A DNA stretch of 64,000 nt from a virus (Duplodnaviria > Heunggongvirae > Uroviricota > Caudoviricetes). Each line of letters opens with the position of its first letter. Position 1 is the first letter of the stretch. Positions 14,460 to 48,975 of the stretch are shown one piece after another. The stretch is from the IMG/VR virus record IMGVR_UViG_2778261223_000007, positions 1 through 64,000 of that record; one strand, given 5' to 3'. Below the pieces are notes generated by a model. It was given only the letters and a program-made list of their open reading frames with translations. It searched no databases and was not told where the DNA came from. Made by a program: the position numbers and the translations under genes.

Positions 14460-15886
14460 CGATTACAGAATTACTGGACAAATTTAACGCCAAGTTAAAT
14501 GAAAACACATGGTGGTCACGATTTGTAAATAGTCAGTTTGTGCAGATGCACGCTATATTCGGATCACAGCTTATTTATATTGCCCGTACATTTGCAAGCC
14601 GCGGCCTCACTGAGGGACTTATTTCAACGGCTACGCGCCGCTCAAGTATTTTAGCGGTTGCTGAAGACCGTAGCTACGTAGGGCGATTTGTTAGTGCTTC
14701 ATACGGAACAACGTCTATAACCAATAAAACTGATCGGGATATTACGTTACCAGCCGGGGCTGAATTGCTTGCCAATGACCAAACACCTTTGGCAATTATT
14801 AACAGTGTTGTAATTCCTGCTGGAGGAACTGTTTCTGGCGTAGAAACTAAACAGCATGAAGCTGTTAGCGTTACATTTGATATTGAGAAGGAAACTTTAT
14901 TTCTGACATTGTTGCTTTCCAGAGAATTAACAAAAGAAGTCTCTAGCCTGGATGTTTATGTTATTACAGATGGCGTAGAAGAAAAATGGACATATAACCC
15001 ATTATTTAGAATGTCCAGAGACAAGAGTAAGCACTATTCATTGGCATATAAACCTACAGAACAACTTGGAGTCAAGTTTGGTGATGGTTCTATGGGTATG
15101 ATGCCTCCAGCAGGCTGTCAGGTTCGAATCGATGTTATGGCTAGCCTTGGCGACTATACTTTGGCTGAAGGACAAAAGTTAGAACCGGCTGGAAATATCG
15201 CTCAATATGTGGAGTCACTAGAGTTTAAAACTGATTCGATCATTACCGGTGGTAGTGGTATGGAAACTACAGAAGAAACTCGAAATCGTGCTCAGTATTA
15301 TGTTGCATACGATGAACAAGTGGTATGGGGCGGTGATTATCGCCAATTCATTCAGAATGTTGTTCATGGAACTTCATGGTTGAACGTTTGGGGCGAAGCG
15401 TTGCAAGAGAAAATAACTGGGTTTGACGTTCGAAACATCAACAAGATTTTCTTTTGCGGACATAAGCCAGGTGTAAGCCAGGCTCAGCTAAAATCAGAAA
15501 TACTGAAAGCTCTAGAGAATGTTCCAAATGAGTTGAACAAGCGGTTTGAGTATGTAGATACAAATGAACAACCATTTACTATAATATTTACAGGTATTGC
15601 ACGTAAAAATGTTCTGATAGACGACGCTCAAAATGCTATTAAAGCAGCGTTGGAAGAAAATTTTGGTCGTGATTCGTCATCATTCAGTTTATTACTACAG
15701 AGTGATGATGATTCTCAGCAATGTTATGCACAGGTAAAAGTTAAAGATATTTGGCGAGTAATAGAGTCGCTGGATATGTTTCTCTCTTATGACATAACAA
15801 TACAAAATATGAAAGATGCAGTTTACTTTAATGACTTCATTTATCTTGACGTGAAATCTTCAACGTTCAGCATTTCTTACCCGTAA
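14456..15886 (+). CDS. putative baseplate protein (gpJ-like)
   Basis: 476-aa ORF overlapping neighbours by 4 nt (translational coupling); position preceding the tail fibre. Confidence 0.4.
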   Translation: MTITELLDKFNAKLNENTWWSRFVNSQFVQMHAIFGSQLIYIARTFASRGLTEGLISTATRRSSILAVAEDRSYVGRFVSASYGTTSITNKTDRDITLPAGAELLANDQTPLAIINSVVIPAGGTVSGVETKQHEAVSVTFDIEKETLFLTLLLSRELTKEVSSLDVYVITDGVEEKWTYNPLFRMSRDKSKHYSLAYKPTEQLGVKFGDGSMGMMPPAGCQVRIDVMASLGDYTLAEGQKLEPAGNIAQYVESLEFKTDSIITGGSGMETTEETRNRAQYYVAYDEQVVWGGDYRQFIQNVVHGTSWLNVWGEALQEKITGFDVRNINKIFFCGHKPGVSQAQLKSEILKALENVPNELNKRFEYVDTNEQPFTIIFTGIARKNVLIDDAQNAIKAALEENFGRDSSSFSLLLQSDDDSQQCYAQVKVKDIWRVIESLDMFLSYDITIQNMKDAVYFNDFIYLDVKSSTFSISYP

Positions 15887-15896
15887 TGAGGTTAGC

Positions 15897-16742
15897 ATGA
15901 AAGATAATTGGCTTAAGGAACGATTAACTAAAGTAAAACAGGATTCACATCTCTGGAGTGCATTTATAGACGCTTTACAGGATGTCTGGAATGAGGCAGT
16001 AGAACCAATATTAACAAGAATAAGTAACAGAAAATCCTTCTTCACTATGGACAGTGAGGACATGGATGCCCGCATTGCTGAATACGGGCGTTTTTTCGTT
16101 ATCACTGAAAAAGATAAGGCTCGTAGGCCAATGCTGCTGGCACAACGTTTAGATGAAGTGCACTTTAAAGGCACTATCTTGCCAATTGAGCAGACATTCT
16201 GGCGTGAATTCGGTTGTATTCCTGTTAGTTGGGAACCGCTGTATGCACCTGTAAATATAGAAAAACACCCCTATGGTTCATATTTTGCGACCGAAATAGA
16301 AATACCTACGGCACAGGCTCAATTCGGTGAGTTCTTCCTGACATCAAGGGGGCTGGTCGTTGTTGATCAGAACAAGCTATATCGCTCATATGGAGAGCAG
16401 GATAAAGAAGCCGCTGTACAGAAATTGTTATCTGACTTCGAAACAGTAATAGCCCCTTTATTGCCATTGCATATTGTTTTTGATGGCGTCTCGTTTCGGC
16501 TTAGTGCTGTATTCCCTGAAGTGGCAGAAATACTAAATTGCTTGTCTACGGATGTTTCGGTAATTGAAGGTGTTTATGTTACTGAGAGTATGGCTGATAT
16601 GCTATCCCGTAGTGATACCTCCTGCCAGGTAGACAATATTTCTCTTAACGCCATACCGAACCGAACGGCAGAAAAGCAATTACATCTTGATGTAACCCCA
16701 CTCGATGCGTGGCCTTTGGATTACCACCTTCAACCTGTTTAA
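15897..16742 (+). CDS. putative baseplate/tail protein (gpI-like)
   Basis: 281-aa ORF in the baseplate series. Confidence 0.35.
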   Translation: MKDNWLKERLTKVKQDSHLWSAFIDALQDVWNEAVEPILTRISNRKSFFTMDSEDMDARIAEYGRFFVITEKDKARRPMLLAQRLDEVHFKGTILPIEQTFWREFGCIPVSWEPLYAPVNIEKHPYGSYFATEIEIPTAQAQFGEFFLTSRGLVVVDQNKLYRSYGEQDKEAAVQKLLSDFETVIAPLLPLHIVFDGVSFRLSAVFPEVAEILNCLSTDVSVIEGVYVTESMADMLSRSDTSCQVDNISLNAIPNRTAEKQLHLDVTPLDAWPLDYHLQPV

Positions 16743-16836
16743 TAATTCCTCCCCCGCATTTGGGGGAAGAACAACGGAAATCACAAACTGAGCATACTCT
16801 CCTTTGGTTCATTGCTTATGAAGGAGCTATGTTCGT

Positions 16837-17283
16837 ATGGCTGAAAATTTAAAGGCAAGAGATGGTAACCGCCTGTATAAGGCACAATTGCTTTCCTACT
16901 ATTATTCACGCCGCGCTGAGTCGGCGATCGGCAAAGGTGCGCGTTTTGTTATCTCTAAGGCGTATTGGTGCAAATCTAGTCTGGTAACTGCTAATGGTGC
17001 AGGAGGCTGGAATATAGCGGACATTCCACTCGATTTTAAATTGAGTGACGCTCAACAGTTTGCTGTGTCCGATCTGATATTGTCCAGCGTGGATGGGATT
17101 ATCACTATCAATGCAGCCTTCCCACAAGAAAGAATGCCGGATAACACGCCTTACGATTTTAACACGCTTGTGCTTGTTGATGCTGAGGAACGGGCTTTTG
17201 GTGTGCTTTGCACCCAGCAAGATACCCTCTATAAAGGTAAACGTTACAGTATTCTCATGACAATCGAGCAAGTTGAGGGTTGA
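16837..17283 (+). CDS. tail-fibre-associated protein (P1 R-like position)
   Basis: 148-aa ORF overlapping the start of the tail fibre gene by 4 nt. Confidence 0.4.
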   Translation: MAENLKARDGNRLYKAQLLSYYYSRRAESAIGKGARFVISKAYWCKSSLVTANGAGGWNIADIPLDFKLSDAQQFAVSDLILSSVDGIITINAAFPQERMPDNTPYDFNTLVLVDAEERAFGVLCTQQDTLYKGKRYSILMTIEQVEG

Positions 17284-20200
17284 TTATGGGGGCTGATAAA
17301 ACGAACAACATAATGACACTATCCTCTGGTGTCTCACAGCCTTTGCTTGCTGATGTTCAATATTTCGAACTCTATAGTAGTTCGGCTCTTAACAGAAAAC
17401 TTAAAAATATTGTTTTGCCTGGCTTTTACTGTGGATTTGAACCAGTTCCCGGCACAGGGTTGAGTGTTCGTATAACTTCTGAAAACTCAGAAGGTAAAGG
17501 GGCTGCTTCAGTAGATGTAAATAATGTTCAGATATCCGTTCAGCAAATAGAAGATGTGACTGTCTCGGTAAAGGCTGGGGCTACCAACATTATTGTGCTG
17601 GAAGCCAATTTTGAACATGGTGTAAAAACGACACAGGTAGATAGCGCATCTTCTGTCAGTGCTGCAAGAATTTACGCGCGTACGGACAATACTATTGGGC
17701 AGAATCAAATTGAATTATGTCGAGTTATCGTGCCTAACGGCGCAACGGCTGTGACTAAAGAAATGATTGTGCTTAAATACCGGGTTAACCGTGCTGTTGG
17801 TGTCGAATTCTCTAATGAAATAAGCAGTACAGAAGAAAGAAAAGCGGCTACACCTCTGGCTGTCAAAACTCTCCATGATTTGGTTGATACAAAAGCTCCG
17901 CTCGATAGTCCGCATCTGTCAGGTACGCCGACTTCGCCGACACCTGAACCCGGTACAAACAACACACAGATCGCAAATGCGGCCTTTGTCTATGCTGCTA
18001 TAAATGCGCTTATCAATGGTGCTCCGGGAACGATGGACACGCTGAAAGAAATAGCGGCTGCGATCAATAACGACCCGAATTTCAGCACAACTATCAACAA
18101 TGCCCTGGCTCTTAAAGCTCCTTTGGCAAGCCCGGCGTTCACAGGTACGCCGACAGCACCTACGGCCTCACAAGGCACAAATAGCACGCAGATTGCAAAT
18201 ACAGCCTTTGTTAAGGCAGCTATAACGGCACTTATCAACGGTGCGCCTGGCACACTGGATACGCTGAAAGAAATAGCGGCTGCGATCAATAACGACCCGA
18301 ATTTCAGCACAACTATCAACAATGCCCTGGCTCTCAAAGCGCCTTTGGCAAGCCCTGCATTAACGGGTGTCCCTACTGCGCCGACCGCCGCACAGGGCAC
18401 AAATAATACGCAGATTGCTACGACCGCTTATGTAAGAGCTGCCATATCCGCATTGGTTGGTTCATCACCAGAAGCTCTTGATACCCTGAATGAGCTTGCC
18501 GCAGCACTTGGCAATGACCCGAACTTTGCGACAACAATGACAAATGCGCTGGCAGGCAAACAGCCTCTGGATGCAACTTTAACCGCGCTCGCTGGCCTTG
18601 CGACTGGTGCAAACAAACTGCCTTATTTCACCGGTAAGGATACGGTAGCGCAGACTGATTTAACGTCAGTCGGTCGCGATATTCTGGCTAAAACAAGCAC
18701 ACTGGCCGTTATCCAATACCTTGGTTTAAGAGAACTCGGTACCAGTGGTGAAAAGATCCCCCTGTTGAGTACGGCTAACACATGGAGTGCGCGCCAGACT
18801 TTCAATGGCGGGATCACCGGGGCGCTGACAGGGAACGCCGACACCGCGACGAAATTGAAAACAGCCATAAACATTAATGGCGTCAGGTTCGATGGTTCGG
18901 CTGACATTAATATCAATACTCTGGTATCGCGTGGTCGCGTAACGGCTCTGGGGGCGAATGCACAGGGGACATCCGGGATTCAGCTGTATGAGGCATACAA
19001 CAATGGCTATCCTTCCCCCTATGGCAATGTGCTTCACCTTAAAGGTGCCACCGCTGCTGGCGAAGGTGAATTATTCATTGGCTGGAGTGGCTCGAGCGGT
19101 GACCATGCGCCCGTACATATCCGTTCGCGGCGTGATACTGATTCTGCCAACTGGTCTGAATGGGCACAGGTCTATACGTCAAAAGATTCAGTTCCCGGCG
19201 TTAATGCCAAAGGGAATCAGGATACCTCTGGTAATGCGGCTACAGCGACCAAATTGCAGACGGCGTGTACTATCAACGGTGTCTCGTTTGATGGTTCTAA
19301 AAACATTGAGCTAACGGCGGAAGATTTAAATCTTGAGCAAACCGTAGAATTAGCCGCAGGAGCATTGCAGAAAAACCAGAACGGTGCAGATATTCCGAAT
19401 AAAGATAAATTCATACAAAACACAGGGGCCTGTCGTGCATTTAGCGGTCAGACTGATATCGATGGTTCACAAGGTGAATGGTCGACAGTTGCATTTATCT
19501 CGTGGCTGGAGAATAACGGAGCTTTCCGACATCCATACTGGATGTGTAAAGGGTCATGGTCCTATGCCAGAAACAGGGTTATTACGGATACCGGTTGTGG
19601 AAATATCTGCCTTGCCGGAGCCGTGATTGAGGTTATGGGAACCCGCGGCGCAATGACCATACGCGTTACCACGCCGAGCACGTCCAGCGGTGGCGGAATC
19701 ACTAACGCTCAATTCACTTATATTAATCATGGTGATGCTTACGCTCCTGGCTGGCGACGAGACTACAACACGAAAAACCAGCAGCCTGCATTTGCTTTAG
19801 GGCAAACAGGACGCAGGGTCGCAAATGATAAAGCTGTTGGCTGGAACTGGAATAGCGGCGTTTATGATGCAGATATCAGTGGCGCATCGACATTAATCCT
19901 CCACTTTAATATGAATGCGGGGAGTTGCCCTGCTGTACAGTTCCGCGTGAATTACAGAAATGGCGGTATCTTTTATCGTTCAGCGCGTGATGGTTATGGC
20001 TTTGAAGCTAACTGGTCAGAGTTTTACACCACAACACGCAAACCCTCTGCGGGAGATGTTGGTGCATATACGCAGGCAGAATGTAACTCAAGGTTTATTA
20101 CAGGTATTCGCCTTGGCGGTCTGTCATCTGTTAAGACATGGAATGGTCCTGGCTGGTCTGACAGGTCAGGTTATGTCGTTACTGGTTCAGTTAACGGAAA

Positions 20201-20285
20201 CCGTGATGAATTAATTGATACAACTCAGGCAAGGCCAATTCAGTATTGCATTAATGGAACGTGGTATAACGCGGGGAGTATTTAA
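17280..20285 (+). CDS. S: tail fibre protein S (constant part Sc fused to variable part Sv in the current orientation)
   Basis: 1001 aa; three tandem ~73-aa fibre repeats (..APLASPAFTGTPTAPTA..QIANTAFV..); coding sequence crosses the crossover site at 18709-18734; the STANTWSARQTFNGGITGALTGNADTATKL segment recurs in the inverted cassette. Confidence 0.8.
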   Translation: MIMGADKTNNIMTLSSGVSQPLLADVQYFELYSSSALNRKLKNIVLPGFYCGFEPVPGTGLSVRITSENSEGKGAASVDVNNVQISVQQIEDVTVSVKAGATNIIVLEANFEHGVKTTQVDSASSVSAARIYARTDNTIGQNQIELCRVIVPNGATAVTKEMIVLKYRVNRAVGVEFSNEISSTEERKAATPLAVKTLHDLVDTKAPLDSPHLSGTPTSPTPEPGTNNTQIANAAFVYAAINALINGAPGTMDTLKEIAAAINNDPNFSTTINNALALKAPLASPAFTGTPTAPTASQGTNSTQIANTAFVKAAITALINGAPGTLDTLKEIAAAINNDPNFSTTINNALALKAPLASPALTGVPTAPTAAQGTNNTQIATTAYVRAAISALVGSSPEALDTLNELAAALGNDPNFATTMTNALAGKQPLDATLTALAGLATGANKLPYFTGKDTVAQTDLTSVGRDILAKTSTLAVIQYLGLRELGTSGEKIPLLSTANTWSARQTFNGGITGALTGNADTATKLKTAININGVRFDGSADININTLVSRGRVTALGANAQGTSGIQLYEAYNNGYPSPYGNVLHLKGATAAGEGELFIGWSGSSGDHAPVHIRSRRDTDSANWSEWAQVYTSKDSVPGVNAKGNQDTSGNAATATKLQTACTINGVSFDGSKNIELTAEDLNLEQTVELAAGALQKNQNGADIPNKDKFIQNTGACRAFSGQTDIDGSQGEWSTVAFISWLENNGAFRHPYWMCKGSWSYARNRVITDTGCGNICLAGAVIEVMGTRGAMTIRVTTPSTSSGGGITNAQFTYINHGDAYAPGWRRDYNTKNQQPAFALGQTGRRVANDKAVGWNWNSGVYDADISGASTLILHFNMNAGSCPAVQFRVNYRNGGIFYRSARDGYGFEANWSEFYTTTRKPSAGDVGAYTQAECNSRFITGIRLGGLSSVKTWNGPGWSDRSGYVVTGSVNGNRDELIDTTQARPIQYCINGTWYNAGSI
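18709..18734 (+). promoter_or_regulatory. left crossover site (cixL/gixL-like) of the invertible tail-fibre segment
   Basis: TTATCCAATACCTTGGTTTAAGAGAA, a close match to the 26-bp hix/gix/cix consensus as recalled; at the outer edge of the left inverted repeat. Confidence 0.7.
18716..18898. repeat. left inverted repeat of the invertible segment (~183 bp)
   Basis: Reverse-complement near-identical to 22810-22992. Confidence 0.8.
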
Positions 20286-20287
20286 TT

Positions 20288-20821
20288 ATGATGCACTTAA
20301 AAAATATTACTGCTGGCAACCCTAAAACAAAAGAGCAATACCAGCTAACAAAGCAATTTAACATCAAATGGCTTTATTCAGATGATGGAAAAAACTGGTA
20401 TGAGGAACAAAAGAATTTCCAGCCAGACACTTTGAAAATGGTCTATGACCATAACGGCGTTATTATTTGTATTGAAAAGGATGTTTCAGCAATTAATCCG
20501 GAAGGCGCAAGCGTCGTTGAATTACCTGATATTACAGCAAATCGCCGGGCTGATATTTCGGGTAAATGGATGTTCAAAGATGGCGTAGTGATAAAGCGAA
20601 CTTATACCGAGGAGGAACAGAGGCAGCAGGCAGAGAATGAAAAGCAAAGCCTGTTGCAACTTGTCAGGGATAAAACCCAGCTATGGGACTCACAGCTACG
20701 GCTGGGTATCATTTCCGACGAGAATAAACAAAAATTAACCGAGTGGATGCTCTATGCGCAGAAGGTCGAATCCACAGACACCTCCAGCCTGCCAGTAACG
20801 TTTCCAGAACAACCAGAATGA
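20288..20821 (+). CDS. U: tail fibre assembly protein U
   Basis: 177 aa; paralogous to the inverted ORF 20850-21380 ([22 protein letters not shown].. vs [23 protein letters not shown]..). Confidence 0.75.
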   Translation: MMHLKNITAGNPKTKEQYQLTKQFNIKWLYSDDGKNWYEEQKNFQPDTLKMVYDHNGVIICIEKDVSAINPEGASVVELPDITANRRADISGKWMFKDGVVIKRTYTEEEQRQQAENEKQSLLQLVRDKTQLWDSQLRLGIISDENKQKLTEWMLYAQKVESTDTSSLPVTFPEQPE

Positions 20822-20826
20822 AACAA

Positions 20827-20852
20827 GGCCCGCTATCGGGCCTTAATTTTTA
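20827..20852. terminator. bidirectional hairpin terminator between U and U'
   Basis: GGCCCGCTATCGGGCC stem followed by a T/A-rich run, between convergent genes. Confidence 0.5.
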
Positions 20853-21380
20853 TTCAGGCTTTTGTGGCCATTCAGGATTTGCCGTATCCACACGGCTGAC
20901 CAGAACACTATAGCGTTCCCATGACTCCAGTCGTGCGCGTTCCTCATCCGTCGCCATATTCAGCCTGACAGCGCGTTCCAGTGGCTGAATAACGTTTTCT
21001 GCTTCGGAAAGTAACGCGGCCTTTTGTGATTCGGCCTGTTGTTGTTGCTCGTCTGCCGTATAAATCCGTTTAACCACAGCTCCGTCCTTAAACATCCACT
21101 TCCCTGAATCATCGGCACGACGATTGGCTGTTATATCTGGAATCTCAACGACGCTAAAGCCTTCGGGATTAAGCGTTGAGGCATCTTTGGTTATGGCAAC
21201 AATAATATTATTTTCGTCGTATACAATCTTTATGGTGTCGTCCTGAAAGTTATTTACTTCTTCATACCAGTTTTTACCGTCTTCGGACCATAACCAGATA
21301 ACATCAAAATTCTTTGTTAGCTGATATTGTTCTTTCGTTTTAGGATTTCCAGACTTAATATTTTTTAAATGCTGCATCAT
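20850..21380 (-). CDS. alternate tail fibre assembly protein U'
   Basis: 176-aa paralogue of U on the opposite strand inside the invertible segment. Confidence 0.75.
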
Positions 21381-22943
21381 TTACACCTGTGCGACGTTAT
21401 ACCATGTGCCATTGATGTATTTTTGTATTGGCCTGAAGATGGCTTCATCATCGCCATCTACTTCACCAATGATTCTTAATCCGGTAATTGCGTGTCCGGC
21501 TTTTTCATAACGACCACCACGCGCCATCAATTGAACAACACGTGTGCCAAGTCGGACATCTCTCACATAGCGTGAGTCAAAATTGCCATAATTGCCGGGA
21601 ATAACTTGCGCACCACAAAGCCAGTTACCGTTATTATCCATGTACGCCTGACCATCGGTGCCATTGGCTGTCCTTGAGTTATTAATCATGTAGATGCCAA
21701 ATTGCTTGTTCCCCAGTCCACCTATCATGAACTTTCGGTCGGCGTGATTCTGGCGAAGTAACGCCTGAGCGCTATCAGTGTTAACTATATTTTTCCCAAA
21801 GATAGCGTTGTTATCGCGCATCTGAATCCACATACCATTACTGCTGTTAATAGCAAAACGGTCTGAAAGTGTCTCCCCTGAAACATTAAGACCACGTCCC
21901 ATCGAAACAGCGCCAGTAGCGTTATTAATCCATAATGGCCTTAATCCGTTATAAGTCCCCATGTTGTCACCGGAGTTTGTCAACATGAAGTATGTATTTG
22001 AACCATCATTACGAATAAAGAATCCGTAATTACCATAAGCAATACGTAGGCCGTTTGCTGATTTTGATATGACTTCGCCATTTACAATGGCATTGACAAG
22101 AACATACAAAGCATCCCATTTAAGATTCATCAGGTCTTTTGTTGTGGTACTTTGTTTGCTTCTCCATTTGAAATATTCATTGCCGTTGTCGCCTGTCTCA
22201 AACCACATGTATGAATCAGTATCGCTGTCGGCATCATTTTTAAAACCAATCTTCGCCCAGTCAGTATTCCGAATCCAGGCAAGGATTGAGTCGTTTTCAA
22301 AAGTAAGTCCACCGGACAAGGTATCGCCTGTCTTTTGAACCGCGTTATCAGCCTTGTTTACCGTTTCCTGTAGATTTAAATCTTCCGCCGTTAGCTCAAT
22401 ATTTTTAGAACCGTCAAACGAGACGCCGTTGATAGTACATGCTATCTGCAATTTGGTCGCTGTAGCCGCATTACCAGAGGTGTCCTGATTCCCTTTAGCA
22501 TTGACGCCGGGAACTGAATCTTTTGACGTATAGATCTGTGCCCACTCGGACCATGCCGCAGCAGTGCTATCTCTTTTGGATCGAATGAAAGCAGGTGCAT
22601 GAGCGCCATTTGTGCCACTCCAGCCAATGAATAACTCACCTTCGCCAGCAGCGGTGGCACCTTTAAGGTGAAGCACATTGCCATAGGGGGAAGGGTAGCC
22701 ATTGTTGTATGCCTCATACATCTGCAATCCAGTAGCAGCACCTTGCGTTGTACCGGTAAGCGCAGTAACGCGTCCTCTAGACGTAATTGTTGGTATCGAA
22801 ATGTTCGTAGAACCATCGAACCTGACGCCATTAATGTTTATGGCTGTTTTTAATTTCGTCGCGGTATCGGCGTTCCCTGTCAGCGCCCCGGTGATCCCGC
22901 CGTTGAAAGTCTGGCGTGCACTCCACGTGTTAGCCGTGCTCAA
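21381..22943 (-). CDS. alternate tail fibre variable segment Sv' (fused to Sc only after inversion)
   Basis: ORF begins with the shared STANTWSARQTFNGGITGALTGNADTATKL block, then diverges from Sv; lies between the inverted repeats on the opposite strand. Confidence 0.75.
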   Translation of the reverse strand: MSTANTWSARQTFNGGITGALTGNADTATKLKTAININGVRFDGSTNISIPTITSRGRVTALTGTTQGAATGLQMYEAYNNGYPSPYGNVLHLKGATAAGEGELFIGWSGTNGAHAPAFIRSKRDSTAAAWSEWAQIYTSKDSVPGVNAKGNQDTSGNAATATKLQIACTINGVSFDGSKNIELTAEDLNLQETVNKADNAVQKTGDTLSGGLTFENDSILAWIRNTDWAKIGFKNDADSDTDSYMWFETGDNGNEYFKWRSKQSTTTKDLMNLKWDALYVLVNAIVNGEVISKSANGLRIAYGNYGFFIRNDGSNTYFMLTNSGDNMGTYNGLRPLWINNATGAVSMGRGLNVSGETLSDRFAINSSNGMWIQMRDNNAIFGKNIVNTDSAQALLRQNHADRKFMIGGLGNKQFGIYMINNSRTANGTDGQAYMDNNGNWLCGAQVIPGNYGNFDSRYVRDVRLGTRVVQLMARGGRYEKAGHAITGLRIIGEVDGDDEAIFRPIQKYINGTWYNVAQV

Positions 22944-22992
22944 CAGGGGGATCTTTTCACCGCTGGTACCGAGTTCTCTTAAACCAAGGTTT
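22810..22992. repeat. right inverted repeat of the invertible segment
   Basis: Reverse complement of 18716-18898 with a few mismatches. Confidence 0.8.
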
Positions 22993-22999
22993 AGGATTG
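22974..22999 (-). promoter_or_regulatory. right crossover site (cixR-like)
   Basis: TTCTCTTAAACCAAGGTTTAGGATTG (plus strand); shares the AAACCAAGGTTT core with hixL as recalled; overlaps the 3' end of the invertase gene. Confidence 0.7.
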
Positions 23000-23551
23000 A
23001 AATGATGATGCCGGAAACTTCTTATAAAGCGTGGAAACAGCCACATCATAGATGATTGCAACCTGCTTACGAGGGATGCCCTTCTCCAGCAATCGCCGCA
23101 TTTGCTGCCATGTTTCTTCTTGGTATTTAGGCCGACGCCCACCTATACGACCTTCTGCGCGAGCTGCATCAAGTCCAGCGCGTGTACGTTCAATGATAAG
23201 CTCACGTTCCATTTCTGCCAGCGCACCCATTACGTGAAAGAAAAAGCGCCCCATTGGTGTACTGGTGTCGATGGAGTCAGTGAGACTCCGGAAGTTAATG
23301 CCTCTGTCACGCAGCTCTTCCACCAGCACAACCAAGTGACGCATGCTGCGCCCAAGGCGATCTAACTTCCATACGACCAGGGTGTCACCTCTGGAAAGAA
23401 TACGCAGAACCTTTTTTAACCCTGGGCGTTCAGCCTTTTTGCCGCTCGCCTTATCCTCAAAAATTAGCTCACATCCTGCGCTTTCAAGGGCGTTTCGTTG
23501 TAAAGCGGTGTTTTGGTCATTAGTTGATACGCGAATGTATCCAATAAGCAT
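22991..23551 (-). CDS. cin: serine DNA invertase (Cin/Gin/Hin/Pin family)
   Basis: 186 aa; N-terminal MLIGYIRVSTNDQNTALQRNAL with catalytic Ser, TLVVWKLDRLGRS, GRFFFHVMGALAEMERELIIERT, C-terminal HTH; directly abuts the invertible segment. Confidence 0.9.
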   Translation of the reverse strand: MLIGYIRVSTNDQNTALQRNALESAGCELIFEDKASGKKAERPGLKKVLRILSRGDTLVVWKLDRLGRSMRHLVVLVEELRDRGINFRSLTDSIDTSTPMGRFFFHVMGALAEMERELIIERTRAGLDAARAEGRIGGRRPKYQEETWQQMRRLLEKGIPRKQVAIIYDVAVSTLYKKFPASSFQS

Positions 23552-23656
23552 ATGTCCCCCCTTGTATGTTAAGGGGGGAGATTCTAGAAGATGTCCTGTA
23601 AGGAAATAACAAACTGACTAAGTTAGTGGCGCATTAGATGTTATTTCTGGAGGGGT

Positions 23657-23983
23657 ATGTTTGCAGATTATGAAAATCTGGCTGTAGTAGTCATAACATC
23701 CCTACTAAGTGGAACCGGCGTATTCCTTCTCGGAGTTAGAGACGGGCGCATTTCTGCGTCCCTGCTCAATCTTGCGAGTGAATTGTTTACTGCGGTAACA
23801 GCCGGGCTTGCGGGGTATGGGGTGGCGGTTAGCCAAGAATGGCCTGAAGGTATCATTTTCTGCGTTGTTCTGATTGCCAGTAACAACGGTAGTGAAATTT
23901 TACAGGGCTTGAAGTCCAGAGCTAGTAACGTCTTGAATCTCTTAAGCGTAATAGCGAATGGGGGAAAAGGTGGAGAGAAATAA
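23657..23983 (+). CDS. small membrane protein, holin-like (LydA-like position)
   Basis: 108 aa, hydrophobic helices and charged C-terminus (..GGKGGEK); first gene of the operon containing the DarA-like gene. Confidence 0.4.
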   Translation: MFADYENLAVVVITSLLSGTGVFLLGVRDGRISASLLNLASELFTAVTAGLAGYGVAVSQEWPEGIIFCVVLIASNNGSEILQGLKSRASNVLNLLSVIANGGKGGEK

Positions 23984-24429
23984 TGGGTAACTTTGGAAAT
24001 TATTTCATTTTTATCATGGCATTTGTTGCCATCATTGACCGTTTCATTTTTCGTCGCAAGAGTGTTGAGATTTTGAGTATTGGTGACGCTGTAGTGAAAG
24101 AATCCGCTATAGCATTTCCTGTTTCGCTACGTGTTAAGCGAAGCTGGGTGAGCAATGCTCAAATCGAATATTGGTTGCAAGACCTGAAAAATCCATCTGT
24201 GGTTATTTCAGGGAAAACGCGACCAGTTGACGCCTCAAAACGCGGTGAGAGAGAAGAGTATTTGCTCATCGATACGAAATATCTTGAGCCAACGAAGTGG
24301 GATCTGAAAGTCACATTGACTAACGGTAACTGCCGACTGAATCCGCTTTATCGCATTTTCCCTATCAATGACTGCATAGAGCGCCAATTTACGATCGAAA
24401 AGCGTGAAGGAGACTGGGATGTCAAATAA
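23983..24429 (+). CDS. membrane-anchored protein (LydB-like position)
   Basis: 148 aa with N-terminal TM helix; start overlaps the stop of the upstream gene. Confidence 0.3.
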   Translation: MGNFGNYFIFIMAFVAIIDRFIFRRKSVEILSIGDAVVKESAIAFPVSLRVKRSWVSNAQIEYWLQDLKNPSVVISGKTRPVDASKRGEREEYLLIDTKYLEPTKWDLKVTLTNGNCRLNPLYRIFPINDCIERQFTIEKREGDWDVK

Positions 24430-25039
24430 AAATAATTATGTTCTTCTTAATTATGATGAGTTAAACGAAAAGGGGCTGTCAAAACTCGTCAAAGAAATCA
24501 GCAAAGGTGGTTACAAGATAGCGAGGGTGATCCCTGCAAGTAATGGCAGGAAGAAAGATGGGATCATGACGCGCACGTTTACCCTTATTGGTATTGATGA
24601 ACAGACAATGGAAGTTCAGGTTAACGATACCGGTGATATATCTGGGATCAAACTGAATGGTAAAACAGTACCGTTCAAGCCAGTAAAAACAATGTCGGCT
24701 TTGGGGCAATCTCTTGCGGCTTTATTTAATCGTGGAGCAACTTCTTTCCAGAAGTCACTAGCTCGAAAACTTGCTCGTGCAGCAAAAAATATTGATGACG
24801 GAAATAAGAAGCGGCAGGGAGTTAAATCTAACGCTCAGAAATTAGCTGAAGCGAAAGAATCACGTGATGCACTCCGTGAAGATATCGCTAATGCTAACGA
24901 CAAACTGTCTAAACTCCAGAGCAAGTCAGACAAAGTAATGCAAGATACGGGTAATGTTAAAGCTGCCTTGTCTCAGGAAGTAGCTAAGACACGTGCTCTT
25001 AAAGAAGAAATCGCGCGCCTGGAGGATGAGCATGATTAA
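24419..25039 (+). CDS. hypothetical coiled-coil protein (Hdf-like?)
   Basis: ATG at 24419 preceded by AAGGAG; the track's GTG 24404 start is less likely; C-terminal heptad-rich region. Confidence 0.3.
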   Translation: MSNKNNYVLLNYDELNEKGLSKLVKEISKGGYKIARVIPASNGRKKDGIMTRTFTLIGIDEQTMEVQVNDTGDISGIKLNGKTVPFKPVKTMSALGQSLAALFNRGATSFQKSLARKLARAAKNIDDGNKKRQGVKSNAQKLAEAKESRDALREDIANANDKLSKLQSKSDKVMQDTGNVKAALSQEVAKTRALKEEIARLEDEHD

Positions 25040-26969
25040 CAATCCTTTACGAATTAATATTCAGTCTACTTTTGCTGATACGATCCCCGGCTATATGCCA
25101 AGTCGCTGGTCTTCAGAAGAATTAAGCGAAGATGACCTGATTTTTGAGGCGGCGACCTTAGAAGATATTGAGCTTGCCTATATGGGCAATGAAATTCTGG
25201 TTGTGTCTGACGAAGCTATGTTTGAGTCCATAACTACAACCAGAATTCGGTTAGCTCAAACAATGCGAGCTTTCGTCCGTGCGCTGAATCGTGGCCTGAA
25301 TGGTACGAATATTATGGCAGGGACTGATGAAGCTGGGACCGATGAAAATGGACGTAATTGTATTGGTGGTGCGATTATCGGTCGTGTACGTCGGGTAGCT
25401 AATATCCCCGTTTTGACCGCGCAGATACCGCTTACTGACGGGCAGAGTACAAGCATAATTTTCCACTCTCCAACAGCTGACGGGGCAAAAATAAAGAGTA
25501 ACGACGAGCTTGTTGCATTTCAGTTTTTACTTAATAAGCGTAACGTAACTCACGTTGTCGCCCCGATTGGTGGGAGAGATGTTTCTTTAAACCAGGTATG
25601 CCAGGCGCTATCTAATTTGATTGAGCGTAACAGCGAAAAATTTAAGAAAGCAAAAGAGCGCCAGGACAAAATGAAGGCAGATATTGAGAGTTATCTCAAT
25701 GAAGCAGATAAACTGGCAGAAGAACGGTCAATAATGATTGATCAGGTGGAAGTTGCGCAACGAGGGCTGACTGAAAAGCGTGCTGCTCTTACGGAGATGC
25801 AAAAAAAACTTGATTCCCAGAAAGCCATCAACGAGGAATTACAAGCAAAACGCGATAAATTGTTGTCTGCTAAAGGTGAAAAAACGAAAGAACGAGCGTT
25901 TAGTGACCAGCTGCGACATGTAAAACATAATCTTGCCATTGACGGAAAAACAGTGCTGGATAATGGCGCTGAAGTTAATTATGTCACGTCCGGCAGTGAT
26001 AATTTCGTTACGATAGTAGCACCTGAAGGTAAATTCAGTATTGATGCCAGTGCTGTCAAAGGAGGCAGTTTGGCAGATGCTGCAACCAAATTACTTAAAG
26101 CCTACCGAGAGCATAACGCAGATAAATATAAAGTTGATGTGTTACCAGGCCAGCAGGAAGACCCCGAACCACCACAGACAGACCCCGAGACGAACCCAGT
26201 ATCACAACCAGAGAGCCAGGATGTAGGTAAATACCACTATGCACTTCAATCTCGCCCGGCTGGTGTTGGTGCTGTGCCGGATGGAAATAAAGCCGTGCTT
26301 GATCGTCCTGACCAGGCTGATCAGTATTACGAATATGCTCGTCACGGTATCATTACGTATGACCGTAAACTGACAGATGAAGAAGTCAGCCAGTACGAGT
26401 TGCTCTATCTTCCTGATGAAGATGAGCTGAAAGATTTTGCAGGCCAATTGGTTGTGTCCAGCATGTCGAAACATATTGATGGCTATGTAGACCTGTTTGG
26501 CAGTGACCTGAAAACATTCAAGGCGCAAGTGAAAATTCTTTTCCGCAAAGCGTTTCCAAACGTGGCGTATCCACTTGGTGATGGGGAGAACCTTTTCATT
26601 ATGGACGTATATAACGCCCTTCAAAATCATTCAAACGAAGTAACGCCAGAGCCTGAATTAGCACCTGTAGTTGAGCCAGAATCACACCCACAAACAGCAC
26701 CAGAGCAACAGCCAACGCCGGAAGACGCTGAAGAAGCGGCAACTGAAGCTGATCAGGAAGCAGATAAAGCGTTGGAGTACCTTAAATCCGTCCCGGTGCA
26801 GTTTACATCTCGCGATCTGACGGTAATCAGTGCCGAACTTGACCATGTGCAGGAAGCTGCAAACGCTCTTATCAGTGCTGGTCGATACGACGAGAACGAA
26901 TCAACGGTTGGCGCAGCAGTTGACTACCTGATCAACATTCTGGCTGAAATTCAGCAGGGAGGTGCTTAA
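25032..26969 (+). CDS. DarA-like antirestriction / head-internal protein candidate
   Basis: ~645 aa with central coiled-coil and acidic Pro/Glu-rich linker; ATG 25032 has GGAGG 6 nt upstream; follows the lydA/lydB-like genes as in the P1 operon order recalled from memory; no sequence confirmation possible. Confidence 0.35.
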   Translation: MINNPLRINIQSTFADTIPGYMPSRWSSEELSEDDLIFEAATLEDIELAYMGNEILVVSDEAMFESITTTRIRLAQTMRAFVRALNRGLNGTNIMAGTDEAGTDENGRNCIGGAIIGRVRRVANIPVLTAQIPLTDGQSTSIIFHSPTADGAKIKSNDELVAFQFLLNKRNVTHVVAPIGGRDVSLNQVCQALSNLIERNSEKFKKAKERQDKMKADIESYLNEADKLAEERSIMIDQVEVAQRGLTEKRAALTEMQKKLDSQKAINEELQAKRDKLLSAKGEKTKERAFSDQLRHVKHNLAIDGKTVLDNGAEVNYVTSGSDNFVTIVAPEGKFSIDASAVKGGSLADAATKLLKAYREHNADKYKVDVLPGQQEDPEPPQTDPETNPVSQPESQDVGKYHYALQSRPAGVGAVPDGNKAVLDRPDQADQYYEYARHGIITYDRKLTDEEVSQYELLYLPDEDELKDFAGQLVVSSMSKHIDGYVDLFGSDLKTFKAQVKILFRKAFPNVAYPLGDGENLFIMDVYNALQNHSNEVTPEPELAPVVEPESHPQTAPEQQPTPEDAEEAATEADQEADKALEYLKSVPVQFTSRDLTVISAELDHVQEAANALISAGRYDENESTVGAAVDYLINILAEIQQGGA

Positions 26970-33875: not shown

Positions 33876-34093
33876 GCTGTTTCTAAATCGGAATGTATGA
33901 TCTGCATCATCGACTGAAGTCATCCATTGCTGAAATTTTTAGTTGATCTTCCATGTTTTCAGGCTTATATTCATGCCGTCGTAGCAAATTCTGCGACCAG
34001 GTTTGACAGCCTGAATGTTAGTGCGGACAACCGCAGATTTCCGATATTGCGGTATTTTTGTGTCCGTAAACCGCGTTACGCCCGAATTATGGT

Positions 34094-34168
34094 GGGGCGT
34101 GATGGGGAGGCTTCGGCCTGCTGGTTTCACTAACGCCAGTCTGTCAACCCTGTCACGTCCTGCCACCT
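34094..34168 (+). ncRNA. c4-like antisense regulatory RNA candidate
   Basis: Structured segment with GGTGG...CCACC closing stem; contains CACTAAC (34128-34134) and CTGTCAA (34141-34147), complementary to the repeated GTTAGTG and TTGACAG target elements flanking it; ends are approximate. Confidence 0.45.
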
Positions 34169-34217
34169 GTTTGACAGCGGGTAGCAGGTTGTTAAACCTG
34201 TTAGTGAGGCCGTAACT

Positions 34218-36015: not shown

Positions 36016-39000
36016 TTGGACAAACTACTTCATTCAATCAGTGAAGCCTCCAGCTTAGGCGAACTGATTGAAATTGTTAGTCGGTTGCATAAATTACGTG
36101 CTGTTGCGACCTTTGGCGTCAGGAAAGCCGATGGCGTCAGTATTCAGAAAACACGCCGGGCAGCAAATAATGCCGCAGTAAATCTTCTTAATTCCCTTCC
36201 GCCCGGCTTCGATGGGGCGAAATTAACTGACGAACAACGTCAGATTCTTGCCGGGTATACCGGTGAAGGCGGCCTGACAGATGGTGAGGGCAGCCAATAC
36301 GAATACTACACGCCACAGTTTATGGCTGAAGGTATATGGGATCTGTTTGCTGACTACGGTATTGATGGCGGGCACGTACTGGAACCATCAGCGGGCACAG
36401 GTATTTTCCAGGAGACAAAACGGCAGGGCATGATAATGACCAGCGCGGAACTGTCTCCGATTTCTGGTCGAATAAACCAGCTTTTGCACCCGGAAGACGA
36501 TGTGAATATCGGGGCGTTTGAGGCGCTGGCGGCGAAAGATGCAATGTATGACCACGCTGTTGGTAACGTACCGTTTGGTGAAGGGCGTTCCGGCGTTGCC
36601 GGGCTTGATCCGGCATATGCAAACGAGAAGAACGTTGGCAATTACTTTGTGCTGCGCACGATCGACAAGGTTAAGCCTGGTGGGCTTATCGTATTGGTGG
36701 TGCCAAATGGCATGACCGATGGTACGAAATATAAAAAATTGCGCGATAAAGTCAGCCGTAAAGCGGAATTTTTGGGCGCACATCGTATGCCTTCCGGTAC
36801 GTTCAGCGAATCCGGTACAGATACCGTGGTGGACGTATGGGTATTGCGTAAACACCCGGAAACCTTCCTGGAGATGATCCCCGACACGGATGATTCAACA
36901 CTCAAATCGGCAAACGTCCTTTGGGATACCTTCCTCAAAGGAAAATGGTTTACAACCGAAGGGAAGCGATTTGTTTACGGCGACATGGAACGTGCCAGCT
37001 TCCGCAATACCCTGGTGGTGAAAAAAGACGGTCGTGTATCCAATGAGTCGATGAAAACCGCGCTATCTCGTCGCTTTGATAGTCGCATCAATTGGGATTT
37101 GCTCGGCGTAACTACTCAGGCATGGCAGGGCGCGAAAGTGGGCGATAAACGCCTTGTAGGCGGTATCTGGCATGAGTTTGATGGTCTGAAATGGGTTAAG
37201 GACACGACAACCAAATCCTCCGCGCTTGATGTAAGTCGATATGGTGTTTCGACGTTTGGCGATCTGCAGATCGCGTTCCAGTCAACAAACGGGATTCTGG
37301 CTTTGTCATGGGACCAGATATCGGCGATCGCGTCCGACTATCCATCGGTTGTCAGTGATGAAGTGGCAGCAATGATTCGCTTTGCTGGCAAGCAGCGAGA
37401 AAAAGATAGAGAGCGCGTTATGCGCGGTGCGCTGATAGGGCAGTTGATCAACAAGGCACTTGATTTGCGTAACCTGGGGGTGAACGTTGATGACAAACTG
37501 GCAGATGCATCCCGCCTGGCGGCAGCAGAAGTTGCGAAGTATGGACCACCACACGCCATTAAGCTGAATGGGCTTGCTGAAGCTGGCGCTAAAAACTGGA
37601 TGACGTTCACTGGCAATGTGAAACAGGATGGTTCCACTTCTGACCTTCTGGCAGGGCGACTTGATGTAACGGATGGTGCTGCCGGTATTGACTTTACACG
37701 TCCTGAACAAGTGATAGCACATCTTTTCAGTGATGTAGCCCTTAATCCTATAACGCTGGGAGACTTTCGTGAGGCGTTTGCTGGTGAACTGCCAGAGGAC
37801 GACGACGCGGCCCTTGAATACCTGGCGAAATTTGATGATATCGCTATTGATGGGTATGGCTGTCTGCTGCCGATGGACCGCGCCACCAGCGGCGATGTTG
37901 CAACCAAAACAGCACTGCTGGTGGGCTGGCGTGATGCGTCAACAGGTGAGCAGAAAGCGAACTTTGAGCGTCAGTTGGCGAAAATCGAAGAGAAACGCAT
38001 TTTCACGCCACTAAATAAAGTCACCGTTAATCTGAATGCCCGCTGGCTGGATCGCCGCTTGATAAAAGAGTTCTTGGCAGAGCAGGGCTATGACGAGTTT
38101 AAGTACACTGAACCTGATCTGAAGGTCGTCGATGGCATTCTGGTATCTCCGGACGATTACGAAGGTAAGGACGGGGTATTTACCGGCTATCAGCTACGAA
38201 CCGTAAACGGCAAAAACGGGAATGAGTTCAAGAAGGCCAACAATAAAGACGGCTTCCTGAACCAGTTAGAAAACTACCTGAACGGTGTTAAACCGCGTGG
38301 GCAGAACGCTAACGAGTACCTGGATAAAATTGCTCAACTGGAAGTTAGCTTTAACGACTGGTTACGCACCCACCCGCAGGCGGATCAGATAGCCCGTGAC
38401 TATAACGACGCATTCAATGGTTTCATTCCGTTCACACATTCTGACGCACCGCTTGGCCTGGAAGGGATTAGTGGAAAGCGCATTCCTCTGACTTATCAGA
38501 ATGAAGAAGTTCGGCGCTTGTCAGAAGATGGGCGTGGCATCATGGGATTTGGTACCGGGCTGGGTAAAACCACGACCGCGCTTGCGCTTGAGGCGTATAA
38601 CTTCGAAACAGGTCGCACTAAACGCACGTGTATTGTTGTTCCGAAGGCGGTTTATCAGAACTGGTATCACGAGGCACAGAGTTTCTACAGTGCTGATGCC
38701 TTCGCCAATATGATGTTTATCGGTTTGGATGAAGTTCGTGATGACAGCGGAAATATTCTGACCGCGCCGGTGCTTGATGAAAATGGCGAACCACGCCTCG
38801 ACAGTAACGGGCAGCCTCTTACCAGAAATGTTGTGAAAGAGTCCTCCAGCGCCGTTATCGTTCAGCGTATGAACATGATCCCGTCGTCAAATTGGCGAAC
38901 GGTCATCATGACAAAAGAACAATTCGCGTCTATCCCGCTACGAGAAAAAACCATCGAGGAGAACTCACAGCAAGCTGTCTTTAATGCTGTGGAAATGGGG

Positions 39001-42000
39001 CGTCTTGACCTGGCGTCCGGTAAACACCGTGATGCGCAGAAGAAGAACAAGATTAAGGATCAGGCCGCGAATACCGGTACAACGAAGAAGCAAAATATCC
39101 CGTACTTTGAGGATATGAACTTCGATAGCGTGATTGCCGACGAGGGGCATAACTACCGCAACTCCTTTAATGCCGGGCGTGAAGCGGGACAACTGGCATA
39201 TTTGCCTAACCCGGCAGTATCCAAGATGGCCCGCGACATGGCTGTAAAAGCTGCGTACATGATGAAACGCAACAACGGGCGTGGTGTAGTCATGCTGACG
39301 GCAACACCGCTGGTGAACAGTCCGATTGATGCCTTCAACATGCTGTCTACTGTCATTCCGCAGGAAGAGTGGATGCGTATGGGCATCATTACGCCTGATG
39401 ATTTCGTTCGTGTGTTTGGCAAAACAGCCACAGTTCAGGTCCAGAAAATTTCCGGGGAAGTGGAAGAGAAGCAGGGGCTGGTGGGCTTCCAGAACCTTGA
39501 CGGCCTGCGTGGTATTTTCCATCGTTGGGCCACTCTGAAGACTGCTGCAGATGTCGGAGCGACGGTTAAAATTCCCGACATCATCGAGAACACCTTGCAG
39601 ATCCCGATGACAGGGGAGCAGGAGACTGCTTATGAAGAGCTTCGTAAGCGTGCTCAGGAGTTAAGTCGCAATGATGAGCTGACAGTCGATGAAAACGGGC
39701 ATATCACTAACGACAAACCGGATGATTTCATCTTCTCCATCATCCGTGACATGGATAAGGTTGCTATAGACCCGGATCTGTATGCCAGTGCGATTACATT
39801 CCAGTTCCCCGTTGAGCTTGCAGACCAGGTAAAAGCTATTGCTGATGCCTTGCCAAAAGTAGCTGGCGGTAAAGTGGCAGATGATGTTGATGAGGCCGAG
39901 GAAGACGGCGCTGGCGGGCTGGTCAGTACGCGTACCAGCAAGGTAGTGAAGACCGCTTTTAGTGAACATCCGACGCATGTTGAAATACGTGCCAGCATTG
40001 AACTGGAAGCTGAAATACTGAAGGCCATTGCGGCTGCCGGCATTGATATGCAGCAGGTATCGCACCCCATCCCGCCGAAGTATGCCGCGCTGATCGAAAA
40101 TCTTCGTGAAGGTCTGAAGAACGGTAAGCAGATCGTCTTTATTGATGAAAAAGCCCAGCACCAGAAGCTGCGCCGTATTATCGCCAGTGCACTGCAAATG
40201 CCGGAGCAGGAGATTGGCATTATCAATGCGACGACAGTTAGCCAGGCTGGTGGCATCAAACTGAAGAAGGTGAATAAGCCGACCGAACCTACTCCAAACA
40301 AAAACGGTGAATACAAAGAAGGGGCATGGGAAACCTACTACAGCAAACTTGCCCAATATGAGGATTATCTCTCCGCTAAAAATGATGCTGGCCTTGAGGG
40401 CATGGAAGGTATTGCCGCCGACTATAACGAAGGTCGCACGCGCATCATAATCTGTAACAAGAAGGCTGAAGTAGGTATTAACCTGCACATCGGGACAACC
40501 GATATCCACCACCTGACACTACCCTGGACACCAGCCAGTATCGACCAACGAAATGGGCGCGGTGCGCGCGTAGGTTCACCGCAAGAAAAGGTCAATGTTC
40601 ACTACTATTGTGGCAAAGGCACATTCGATGACTTCCGTCTGGATACGCTTAAACGTAAGAAAGACTGGATCAAGATGGTGATGACCTCCGACATGTCAGA
40701 GATCGCCAATGGTGATGCGGATGATGCTGATGAACGCGCCATTATGCTGGCGGCAAACCCGGAAGAACGCCGCGCAATCATGGCTCGCCAGGCGCAAGAG
40801 CGTGAAGAACGTCTGAAACTGAAAGCACAGCGCGAGGCCAACAATGCTCTCGATATCTACCTGAAAGCGGCAAACGCCGCCGGAAAAGATATCGGCATGA
40901 TGGAGACAGAACTGAAAAGCGCGATGGAACAGATAGAGTATTACCAGCGAAATCTTGACGACCTGATAAAAGCGGGTACGAACAGGAATGGGCAAAAATA
41001 CGCGCTTGAGCAGTTGAGTAGCTACAGAAAACGTGCGCGGGTGCTGCGGTTTGCGATCACCAGGGCAAAAGACGCGGATACCATAATGAAACGCTCTCGT
41101 GGTGATGTGGAGCGCGCTATTAAGTCTGGTGTGCTGGATATCAGTATCGATGTTATTCAGAACCCACAGGAATATATGCGCACTGACAAGAATATCCTGT
41201 TGCATAAAGGTAGTTATTACCGTGCAGTCATTGATGATCGCGAAACAACAGCGATTGTCCGGGTGGAAAAAATTGACGGTGAAAAAGCACAATACCTCTG
41301 CCGTATCGCCTGGCTGGATAGAGCAAGTCGTTACGCTCGAGCACCGGGGTCAATCGTTACATTGCCGTTTGACTCTGTGATTGAAGCGGTAACTTTTGAA
41401 GAGGGGGTAGCTGAATCGCGCGCAACGGCTGCGCGAGGTGTTCAGTGCCACCAGCTATCAACAATACTTACTCGCGATCAGTTCTATGATGCTATTCGCA
41501 ATGGGGTAATGAATGTTATTGCTGGTAAACCTGGTAATGCATGGGGCGGTGGGTCAGCTATTAAATACTGGGCATATCGCACAGATGATGGTCAGATCGC
41601 GCTGTCATCGGCCTATGATGGCGTGATAGGCCAAAAAATCGGGCGAGCATCGGATATAGCACCTGAGCGATGGATATATCCTGATGGCAACGACGAGGCG
41701 CTGAAGCGTGAAGTGGCAAAAATACAAGCCAGTGATAACCCGCTGAATATCGTGGACGGCGAGGGATTCCTCCAGGCATTGTATGGGTATGATTACATCC
41801 AGGGAATGCAGGCATGGGGCGCACAGGCAACGATGGATGATGTTGCCCAGGAGTTCGAAAACTGGATGGCTGGGCGTGGTCTGTCAGGTCGTTCGCTTAA
41901 TAAAGTCACTTCTGAAGATATTCTTAGCTTGTTCCGCAAACCGTCCGGAGAAGGTCTGGAATCATTCTGGAGGACCGTGCTGGCATACCGTTTATTCCAG

Positions 42001-47284: not shown

Positions 47285-47360
47285 GATGGTGTAGCTCAGC
47301 GGTTAGAGCGGTTGACTGTTAATCAACGGGTCGATGGTTCAAATCCATCCACCATCGCCA
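47285..47360 (+). tRNA. tRNA-Asn (anticodon GTT)
   Basis: Cloverleaf read by hand: acceptor GATGGTG/CACCATC, D-stem GCTC/GAGC, anticodon loop CTGTTAA, T-loop TTCAAAT, discriminator G + CCA encoded. Confidence 0.85.
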
Positions 47361-47362
47361 AT

Positions 47363-47438
47363 GCCGGTTTAGCTCAGTTGGTAGAGCGCCTGCCTTGTAA
47401 GCAGGATGTCAGCGGTTCGAGTCCGTTAATCGGCACCA
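47363..47438 (+). tRNA. tRNA-Thr (anticodon TGT)
   Basis: Acceptor GCCGGTT, D-arm GCTCAGTTGGTAGAGC, anticodon loop CTTGTAA, T-loop TTCGAGT, CCA encoded; close to E. coli tRNA-Thr as recalled. Confidence 0.85.
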
Positions 47439-47903
47439 GCACAACAGGTAAGGGTATTTTGCGACGTCGGAGATCGCCGAGCTTGGCAGAGGGTTCGAAT
47501 CCCTACGAAGTACCCTTACCGTTGTGATGAAGTGCAGCTCTTTGAAGCAACCAGAAGATAAGCATCTGGCTTCACAACATAAACCGCAGGAACGACCAAT
47601 AAACGGTAGTCCGTACGGAGAACACCCCGTTGAGGAAGAGGCCTGGCCGGAACCGTAACCGGCACTACAACGTTGAGAACACTGGCGTAACGGGGTCATA
47701 TCCCAATCTACGAATAAATGTTGCGTTGCAGCGTGACAACCAGTGTTCTCAACGTTGTGGTGGATTCGCAGGCTGATGCGATAGCTTTCTTGGATGTTAG
47801 GGAAATGCGGCCGCAAATCTTCCCTTTCGCGAGCGGTGATCGTCCGTAGTCCTAATTGGCTGCACCGTATGCCGGAGATTCAGTACCGGCCACCACAACG
47901 GCC

Positions 47904-47990
47904 GGAGAGTAGGGCGCATGGTGCTCAAGCGGTCTTGAAAACCGTCCCATTGCGCAAGCGATGATGGTTCGATTCCATTACTCTCCGCCA
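47904..47990 (+). tRNA. class II tRNA-like element, anticodon TGA (Ser-like), non-canonical D-arm
   Basis: Acceptor GGAGAGT/ACTCTCC + G + CCA; anticodon stem-loop GCGGT-CTTGAAA-ACCGT like tRNA-Ser(UGA); T-loop TTCGATT; long variable arm; D-arm does not fold cleanly, so possibly a pseudo-tRNA. Confidence 0.4.
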
Positions 47991-48257
47991 GCGCAACGTT
48001 AAGAGTATTTGGCTAATTAAGCGAATGCCGGAAGCAGAACCGGATCACCAAATGCGTACAGGCGTCATCGCCGCCCAGCCAGCCAAGTGCTCTTACCATT
48101 GCGGTGAATGCGGCTAAGCGCACGCGGAACAGTTAAAACAATCCTCCTTAGTGGTTAAGTCAAAAATCCCGGCGTTAATTGTTAACTGGTTAACGTCACC
48201 TGGAGGCACCAGGCACCGCAACCTAATAAATACGTCATGTTTATTGAGGGATAACCA

Positions 48258-48966: not shown

Positions 48967-48975
48967 AAACTAATT

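Follow-up and report, generated by a model that had tools for sequence, protein, structure and literature searches.

The window analysed here is a stretch of 64,000 nucleotides (nt) from a virus of the class Caudoviricetes (positions 1 to 64,000 of the IMG/VR record IMGVR_UViG_2778261223_000007). Between positions 18709 and 22999 it contains a segment of 4.27 kb with two convergent cassettes, each consisting of a tail-fibre C-terminus and its own chaperone gene. The segment is located between the constant part of the tail-fibre gene S and the gene for the serine DNA invertase Cin, and 26-bp crossover sites are found at both of its ends. Comparison with related phages indicated that this region is very probably the C segment of a phage-plasmid of the type of Escherichia phage D6 (MF356679) and phage P1 (AF234172), which would be flipped by Cin between inverted cix sites. 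The genes and sites that make up the locus are the following.

17286-18721, plus strand: Sc, the constant N-terminal part of S (amino acids 1 to approximately 479), located outside the segment, with a Phage_fiber_2 repeat
18709-18734, plus strand: Sc-side crossover site, corresponding to P1 cixR, TTATCCAATACC-TT-GGTTTAAGAGAA whose central TT occupies 18721-18722; P1 and D6 have the same 26-mer on their Sc side
18709-19346, no strand assigned: left arm of an inverted repeat of approximately 640 bp, encoding the first approximately 210 residues of the variable part, which are common to both cassettes
18722-20285, plus strand: variable fibre part now fused to Sc, 521 amino acids, homologue of P1/D6 Sv' (S' fibre)
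20288-20821, plus strand: expressed tail-fibre assembly chaperone, U' homologue, 177 amino acids, Caudo_TAP domain (E = 6e-37)
20824-20845, no strand assigned: hairpin rich in G+C, AAGGCCCGCTATCGGGCCTT, with stems of 8-9 bp and T runs on either strand, situated precisely where the convergent U' and U genes meet
20850-21380, minus strand: silent chaperone, U homologue, 176 amino acids, Caudo_TAP domain (E = 2e-37)
21381-22986, minus strand: silent variable fibre part, homologue of P1/D6 Sv, 535 amino acids, with a Gp34_trimer domain
22359-22999, no strand assigned: right arm of the inverted repeat of approximately 640 bp
22974-22999, minus strand: cin-side crossover site, corresponding to P1 cixL, CAATCCTAAACC-TT-GGTTTAAGAGAA (read from 22999 to 22974) with the core at 22987-22986; the same 26-mer forms the cin-side site in P1 and D6
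22991-23551, minus strand: cin, serine DNA invertase, 186 amino acids, with a Resolvase domain (residues 3-135, E = 5e-51) and an HTH_7 domain (residues 138-181, E = 3e-18)

The copy is intact: sites, cassettes and cin are all present. The two crossover sites are inverted relative to each other, have the form 12-TT-12 when read inward and carry the same core. Their outer ends coincide exactly with 18709 and 22999, the limits that a first-pass annotation of this DNA had set for an invertible segment, and the sites of the hix/gix/cix type that it had placed at the outer ends of the repeats are identical to P1 cixL and cixR. When the 19-mer shared by both sites was searched with up to 3 mismatches, only these two occurrences were found in the 64 kb, whereas shuffled sequences gave 0.02 occurrences on average and none of the 100 shuffles reached two. 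Additional or quasi-cix sites, as in a multi-site shufflon like that of p15B Min, were looked for in the 64 kb and none were found beyond the two.

The adjacent Cin-family invertase, which had likewise been proposed earlier, is encoded by an intact gene for 186 amino acids that overlaps one of the sites, with the stop codon (22993-22991) falling within the outer half of the cin-side site. The protein starts with MLIGYIRVS, which places the nucleophilic serine at position 9. Its sequence does not differ from that of the D6 invertase (100% identity) and shares 97.8% identity with P1 Cin; a comparison with known structures gave matches to Mu Gin (3UJ3 and 4M6F, E = 4e-89).

A repeat finder detected three nested inverted-repeat pairs on one common axis.

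18711-18908 and 22800-22997: inverted-repeat pair, 198 nt, 93% identity
18981-19346 and 22359-22724: inverted-repeat pair, 366 nt, 86% identity
20284-20634 and 21031-21381: inverted-repeat pair, 351 nt, 70% identity

The outer arms, 18716-18898 and 22810-22992, are identical at 175 of 183 positions (95.6%). Between this outer block and the 366-nt block lies a diverged patch with a 3-nt indel (approximately 18899-18980). Inverted repeats of approximately 183 bp had been described before at these coordinates; the arms are indeed located there, but their full length is approximately 640 bp and the 183 bp represent the outer block.

The open reading frame of S is listed as 17280-20285, and an ATG at 17286 matches the start of D6 S, which results in a protein of 999 amino acids. 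Its plus-strand variable part is 99.2% identical to D6 S' and 89.8% identical to the P1 Sv' region at the amino acid level, and the chaperone encoded behind it is 99.4% identical to D6 U' and 95.5% to P1 U'. On the minus strand, the silent fibre frame lacks its own start and continues uninterrupted to the crossover site; its protein sequence is 93.3% identical to P1 Sv, and the accompanying chaperone is 100% identical to D6 U and 96% identical to P1 U. The first-pass annotation had correctly recognised two mirrored cassettes and an in-frame fusion of Sc to the plus-strand one. It had, however, called the plus-strand cassette Sv/U and its mirror image Sv'/U', and these names are swapped, since by homology the plus-strand cassette is the Sv'/U' of P1 and D6. 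The variable parts of the two cassettes are 84% identical over their first approximately 218 residues, which are encoded by the repeat. Beyond this shared block no similarity between the two variable parts was detectable, except for approximately 70 C-terminal residues with 37% identity. The strong divergence postulated for the variable parts is therefore confirmed, but it starts only past approximately 19346 and not after the 183-bp block.

Phage records matching the region in a megablast search were P1, P7, RCS47 and D6, all of which annotate it as a Cin-invertible C segment and name S, U, U', Sv', cin as well as cix sites in it; the architecture annotated for P1, P7 and D6 is exactly that of the window. 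The closest of the relatives compared here in detail is D6, in which the segment is 99.7% identical over 4287 nt, the cix sites (cixL and cixR, annotated in the D6 record 'by homology with phage P1') are identical and the gene order is shared. Outside the segment, a full-length comparison of the window region 26000-50000 gave 99.1% identity to D6. The two phages carry the segment in opposite orientations with respect to the flanks: the D6 record shows Sc-Sv, the window Sc-Sv'. Positions 18711-22997 match D6 on the plus strand, whereas minus-strand matches were obtained for the flanks, which comprise 16, R and Sc at one end and cin, lydA and darA at the other. Compared with both the D6 and the P1 record, the segment is thus inverted.

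In-silico inversion of the window at the central dinucleotides restores both sites and results in an in-frame Sc-Sv fibre of 1013 amino acids (87.8% identical to D6 S), followed by U via an overlapping TAAATG. Sc is fused in frame in both orientations, yielding 999 amino acids now and 1013 after inversion, and in each case a chaperone gene follows directly. After in-silico inversion, the region 18400-25997 is collinear with D6 at an identity of at least 99.6%. A mosaic boundary at the cix sites had also been considered, with the segment 99.7% and the flanks 97% identical to D6, and was ruled out by this collinear identity; the apparent 97% of the flanks arises because non-equivalent repeat arms were aligned and because of the Sc repeat region.

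Polymorphisms that distinguish the two repeat arms allowed the exchange point to be located. The repeat variant that adjoins the Sc-side outer half-site in the window is marked by T at 18746, with GAGT, ACAT, GCGC and CAAT as additional differences. Next to this half-site D6 has the other variant, and the reverse is seen on the cin side, making the junctions reciprocal. All arm-distinguishing polymorphisms from 18746 inward move with the segment, while the outer half-sites remain with the flanks. The phase of these polymorphisms places the exchange within 18718-18745, 28 bp of the 640-bp repeat that contain the cix core. Arms of approximately 640 bp with 86-96% identity are in principle a substrate for homologous recombination, and inversion could thus be attributed to RecA-dependent recombination between the repeats, with cix and Cin being irrelevant or vestigial. 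A homologous crossover could, however, fall anywhere in the 640 bp, whereas the exchange is confined to the 28 bp with the cix core at the extreme outer end of the repeat. Cin is moreover intact and does not differ from the D6 invertase, and the crossover sites agree fully with the cix sites that were defined by experiment in P1. We consider a RecA-dependent mechanism extremely improbable. As far as the aligned arms allow it to be placed, the exchange matches recombination mediated by Cin and not a randomly placed homologous crossover.

Both orientations were also found in a pair of sibling plasmids, CP057047.1 and CP057059.1, which are both 93,415 bp long and come from E. coli of one pooled cattle-faeces farm sample. 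Over the 14 kb compared (75000-89000 of each plasmid) they are approximately 99.9% identical, and they differ essentially only by the inversion of a 4.5-kb block between 26-bp cix sequences identical to those of the window. The pair represents a natural snapshot of both switch states. The crossover cannot be mapped in these plasmids because the repeat arms are identical near the sites. Reciprocal junctions of the opposite orientation, which the first-pass annotation had predicted for an inverting segment, are present in D6 and in one of the two sibling plasmids. Its proposal of an invertible tail-fibre segment with alternate fibre and chaperone cassettes is borne out by the sites, the cassettes, cin and the orientations seen in D6 and the siblings. 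This evidence for inversion is comparative and comes from relatives, not from a population of the window's own molecule. Both arrangements occur among many P1-like plasmids in plasmid and E. coli collections. An orientation ratio calculated from 468 plasmid matches and 1958 E. coli records was dropped, since partial coverage confounds inversion with cassette replacement; many relatives among these matches carry different cassettes.

Judged by its homologies, the state captured in the window corresponds to the C(-) state of P1, with Sc joined to the Sv'/U' homologues and thus the S' form of the fibre. In the reference record of P1, the segment is given as C(+). The orientation in the window might also be an arbitrary or majority choice made by the assembler from a mixed population across the 640-bp repeats. 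Invertible segments with flanking repeats that exceed the read length are routinely assembled in one arbitrary orientation, and it is established that populations of P1 lysogens are mixed (10.1101/2022.07.24.501295, introduction). The junctions, however, are exact reciprocal products of Cin with the arm polymorphisms in phase, which fits a real molecule and not a chimeric join within the repeat, and an assembler choice is in our view unlikely. Such a choice would leave the identity of the element unchanged and weaken only the statement that this genome is in C(-).

For inversion by Cin, a recombinational enhancer would be needed in addition to the sites, and a candidate was found within cin.

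23462-23533, minus strand: putative recombinational enhancer (sis) located in the 5' portion of cin (homology-based assignment)

This element shares 68 of 72 nt with the sequence that the P1 record labels 'enhancer of Cin-mediated C-segment inversion'. The four substitutions in it, and a region upstream of cin (23552-23700) that is not alignable with the P1 promoters P1cin and P2cin, would be compatible with a frozen relic, in which the P1-like architecture is ancestral and the copy no longer switches, for instance due to an impaired enhancer or an unexpressed cin, leaving the fibre permanently in the S' form. Degenerate or truncated cin and C-segment loci have been reported in some P1-like plasmids (PMC6906374). 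Yet the cin gene of the window is not truncated and retains Ser9 and every domain, the two crossover sites reproduce those of P1 without a mismatch and share the same core, and both cassettes are open and in frame. D6, which is approximately 99% identical, has the same cin sequence (561 of 561 nt, enhancer included) with 100% identity in the bins spanning cin and the adjoining sequence, and it carries the segment in the opposite orientation. This means that exactly this allele of cin and enhancer has flipped recently, and makes a frozen relic very improbable. A generic sigma-70 promoter scan of the region gave fewer sites than were found in shuffled sequences and is therefore uninformative.

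In the mechanism that we propose, the promoter, gene R (located directly upstream of S) and Sc would be fixed outside the segment, and the two convergent cassettes inside would be promoterless with a terminator between them. Cin would flip the segment by conservative site-specific recombination between the two inverted 26-bp cix sites. By extension from work on Cin, Gin and Hin, Cin dimers at both sites would assemble with the Fis-bound enhancer in cin into an invertasome, and a 2-bp staggered cut at the central TT would be followed by a 180-degree rotation and religation. The cassette facing Sc would be fused in frame at the crossover site and expressed with its chaperone, and the other one, having no start, would be silent. 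One inversion of the window would give Sc-Sv plus U. The hairpin at 20824-20845 is likely a bidirectional terminator-like site; in this role it would prevent read-through from the expressed cassette from producing antisense transcripts of the silent one.

By analogy with P1, the two fibres would be expected to recognise different receptors and to result in different host ranges. P1 carrying the S fibre, P1(S), uses the lipopolysaccharide core, and O-antigen hinders P1(S). The S and S' fibres of P1 differ in their requirement for O-antigen (10.1101/2022.07.24.501295), and the mechanism and the S' host range are covered in the same study. Since the S' form of P1 needs O-antigen-bearing hosts, taking over the orientation of the P1 or D6 reference would give the wrong fibre for a host-range prediction.

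None of the results contradicts the reading of the locus as a Cin switch, but this reading has limits. The receptor specificities are extrapolated from P1, the Sv' of which is only approximately 90% identical, and this element might use a somewhat different receptor. Both the binding of Fis and the activity of the enhancer are predicted from 94% sequence identity only. A late promoter of the P1 LPs type (-22 box AAGTTACTT plus -10 element) was sought by similarity upstream of R (16743-16836) and none was found; only the hairpin-like CCCCCGCATTTGGGGG is present there. Furthermore, one static sequence cannot show current switching or its rate in this copy. A degenerate late-promoter pattern was also tried, and it was rejected because its 2 matches in the window compare with 0.9 expected and neither is sensibly placed.

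P1 has the same order of genes and sites as the window (cin, cixL, Sv', U', U, Sv, cixR, Sc, R), inverted repeats of approximately 0.6 kb as found here and a segment of nearly the same size (4.26 kb compared to 4.27 kb), which is approximately 91% identical at the nucleotide level. The LPs promoter and the cin promoter regions of P1 are not conserved in the window. The same logic of a serine invertase, 26-bp sites and alternate S/U cassettes is found in the G segment of Mu and D108 (Gin/gix), in Salmonella Hin/hix, in the P segment of e14 (Pin) and in p15B Min, the last of which uses six crossover sites whereas the window has only two. The G segments of Mu and D108 are 92-93% identical to the cassette interior (window 19362-22372). 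This homology leaves out the outer repeats of approximately 640 bp, the match starting at query position 2083. The inverted repeats of the Mu G segment are short, with 34 bp. The Sc part and the phage backbone of the window are unrelated to Mu.

The switch is an already known system, the D6 allele of which has been deposited and annotated before; the inversion regions of P1 and D6 are discussed in PMC6906374 and PMC6799933. Being a textbook programmed inversion in a copy 99.7% identical to the annotated one of D6, it has little value as a discovery. It has consequences for annotation. The fibre gene in the captured orientation encodes the S' (Sc-Sv') form, and the start-less open reading frame 21381-22986 should be labelled as an alternative 3' part belonging to S, neither as a separate gene nor as a pseudogene. 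In comparisons of P1/D6-like plasmids, the inversion should not count as a structural difference.

Besides the invertible segment, the constant part of the fibre gene shows variation of its own. Sc contains three tandem units of 222 bp (74 amino acids) at 17892-18557, of which units 1 and 2 are 80% identical and unit 3 is more diverged. Compared to D6, Sc of the window has exactly one 222-bp unit more, as seen from an alignment offset of 222 nt and from the lengths of the Sc-Sv form (1013 compared to 939 amino acids). Repeated elements 'b1/b2' annotated in the P1 record are equivalent to these units. If gain and loss of Sc repeats were frequent, they would constitute a second recombination-driven axis of tail-fibre variation beside Cin inversion, an idea which is speculative and which we regard as rather doubtful. 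In that case fibre length would vary, and the element would sample at least four fibre forms instead of two. Identity to D6 is approximately 97% in the region 15489-18348 (baseplate gene, gene 16, R and the start of Sc) and at least 99% from the end of Sc onward (18400-50000); a modest mosaic boundary relative to D6 is located in the Sc repeat region and not at the cix sites.

Directly upstream of S, the window encodes a further tail-fibre gene.

16837-17283, plus strand: gene R, tail-fibre gene, 148 amino acids; the collinear D6 gene is annotated as 'similar to P1 gene R'

A Pfam search with the gene R product gave no match. Close to the switch, 24993-26969 encodes the anti-restriction protein DarA with its DarA_N and DarA_C domains, and a DarB-like anti-restriction protein of 2278 amino acids with SNF2, helicase and N6-methylase domains is encoded at 36016-42852. 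Rfam matches to the C4 antisense RNA and its a1b1 target were found at 33965-34017 and 34085-34170, an immunity region of the P1 ImmI type. Four tRNA genes are located at 47285-49051 (Asn-GTT, Thr-TGT, Ser-TGA and one tRNA with a CAT anticodon); the matched records of the P1 family annotate tRNA-Asn, tRNA-Thr and tRNA-Met in this region.

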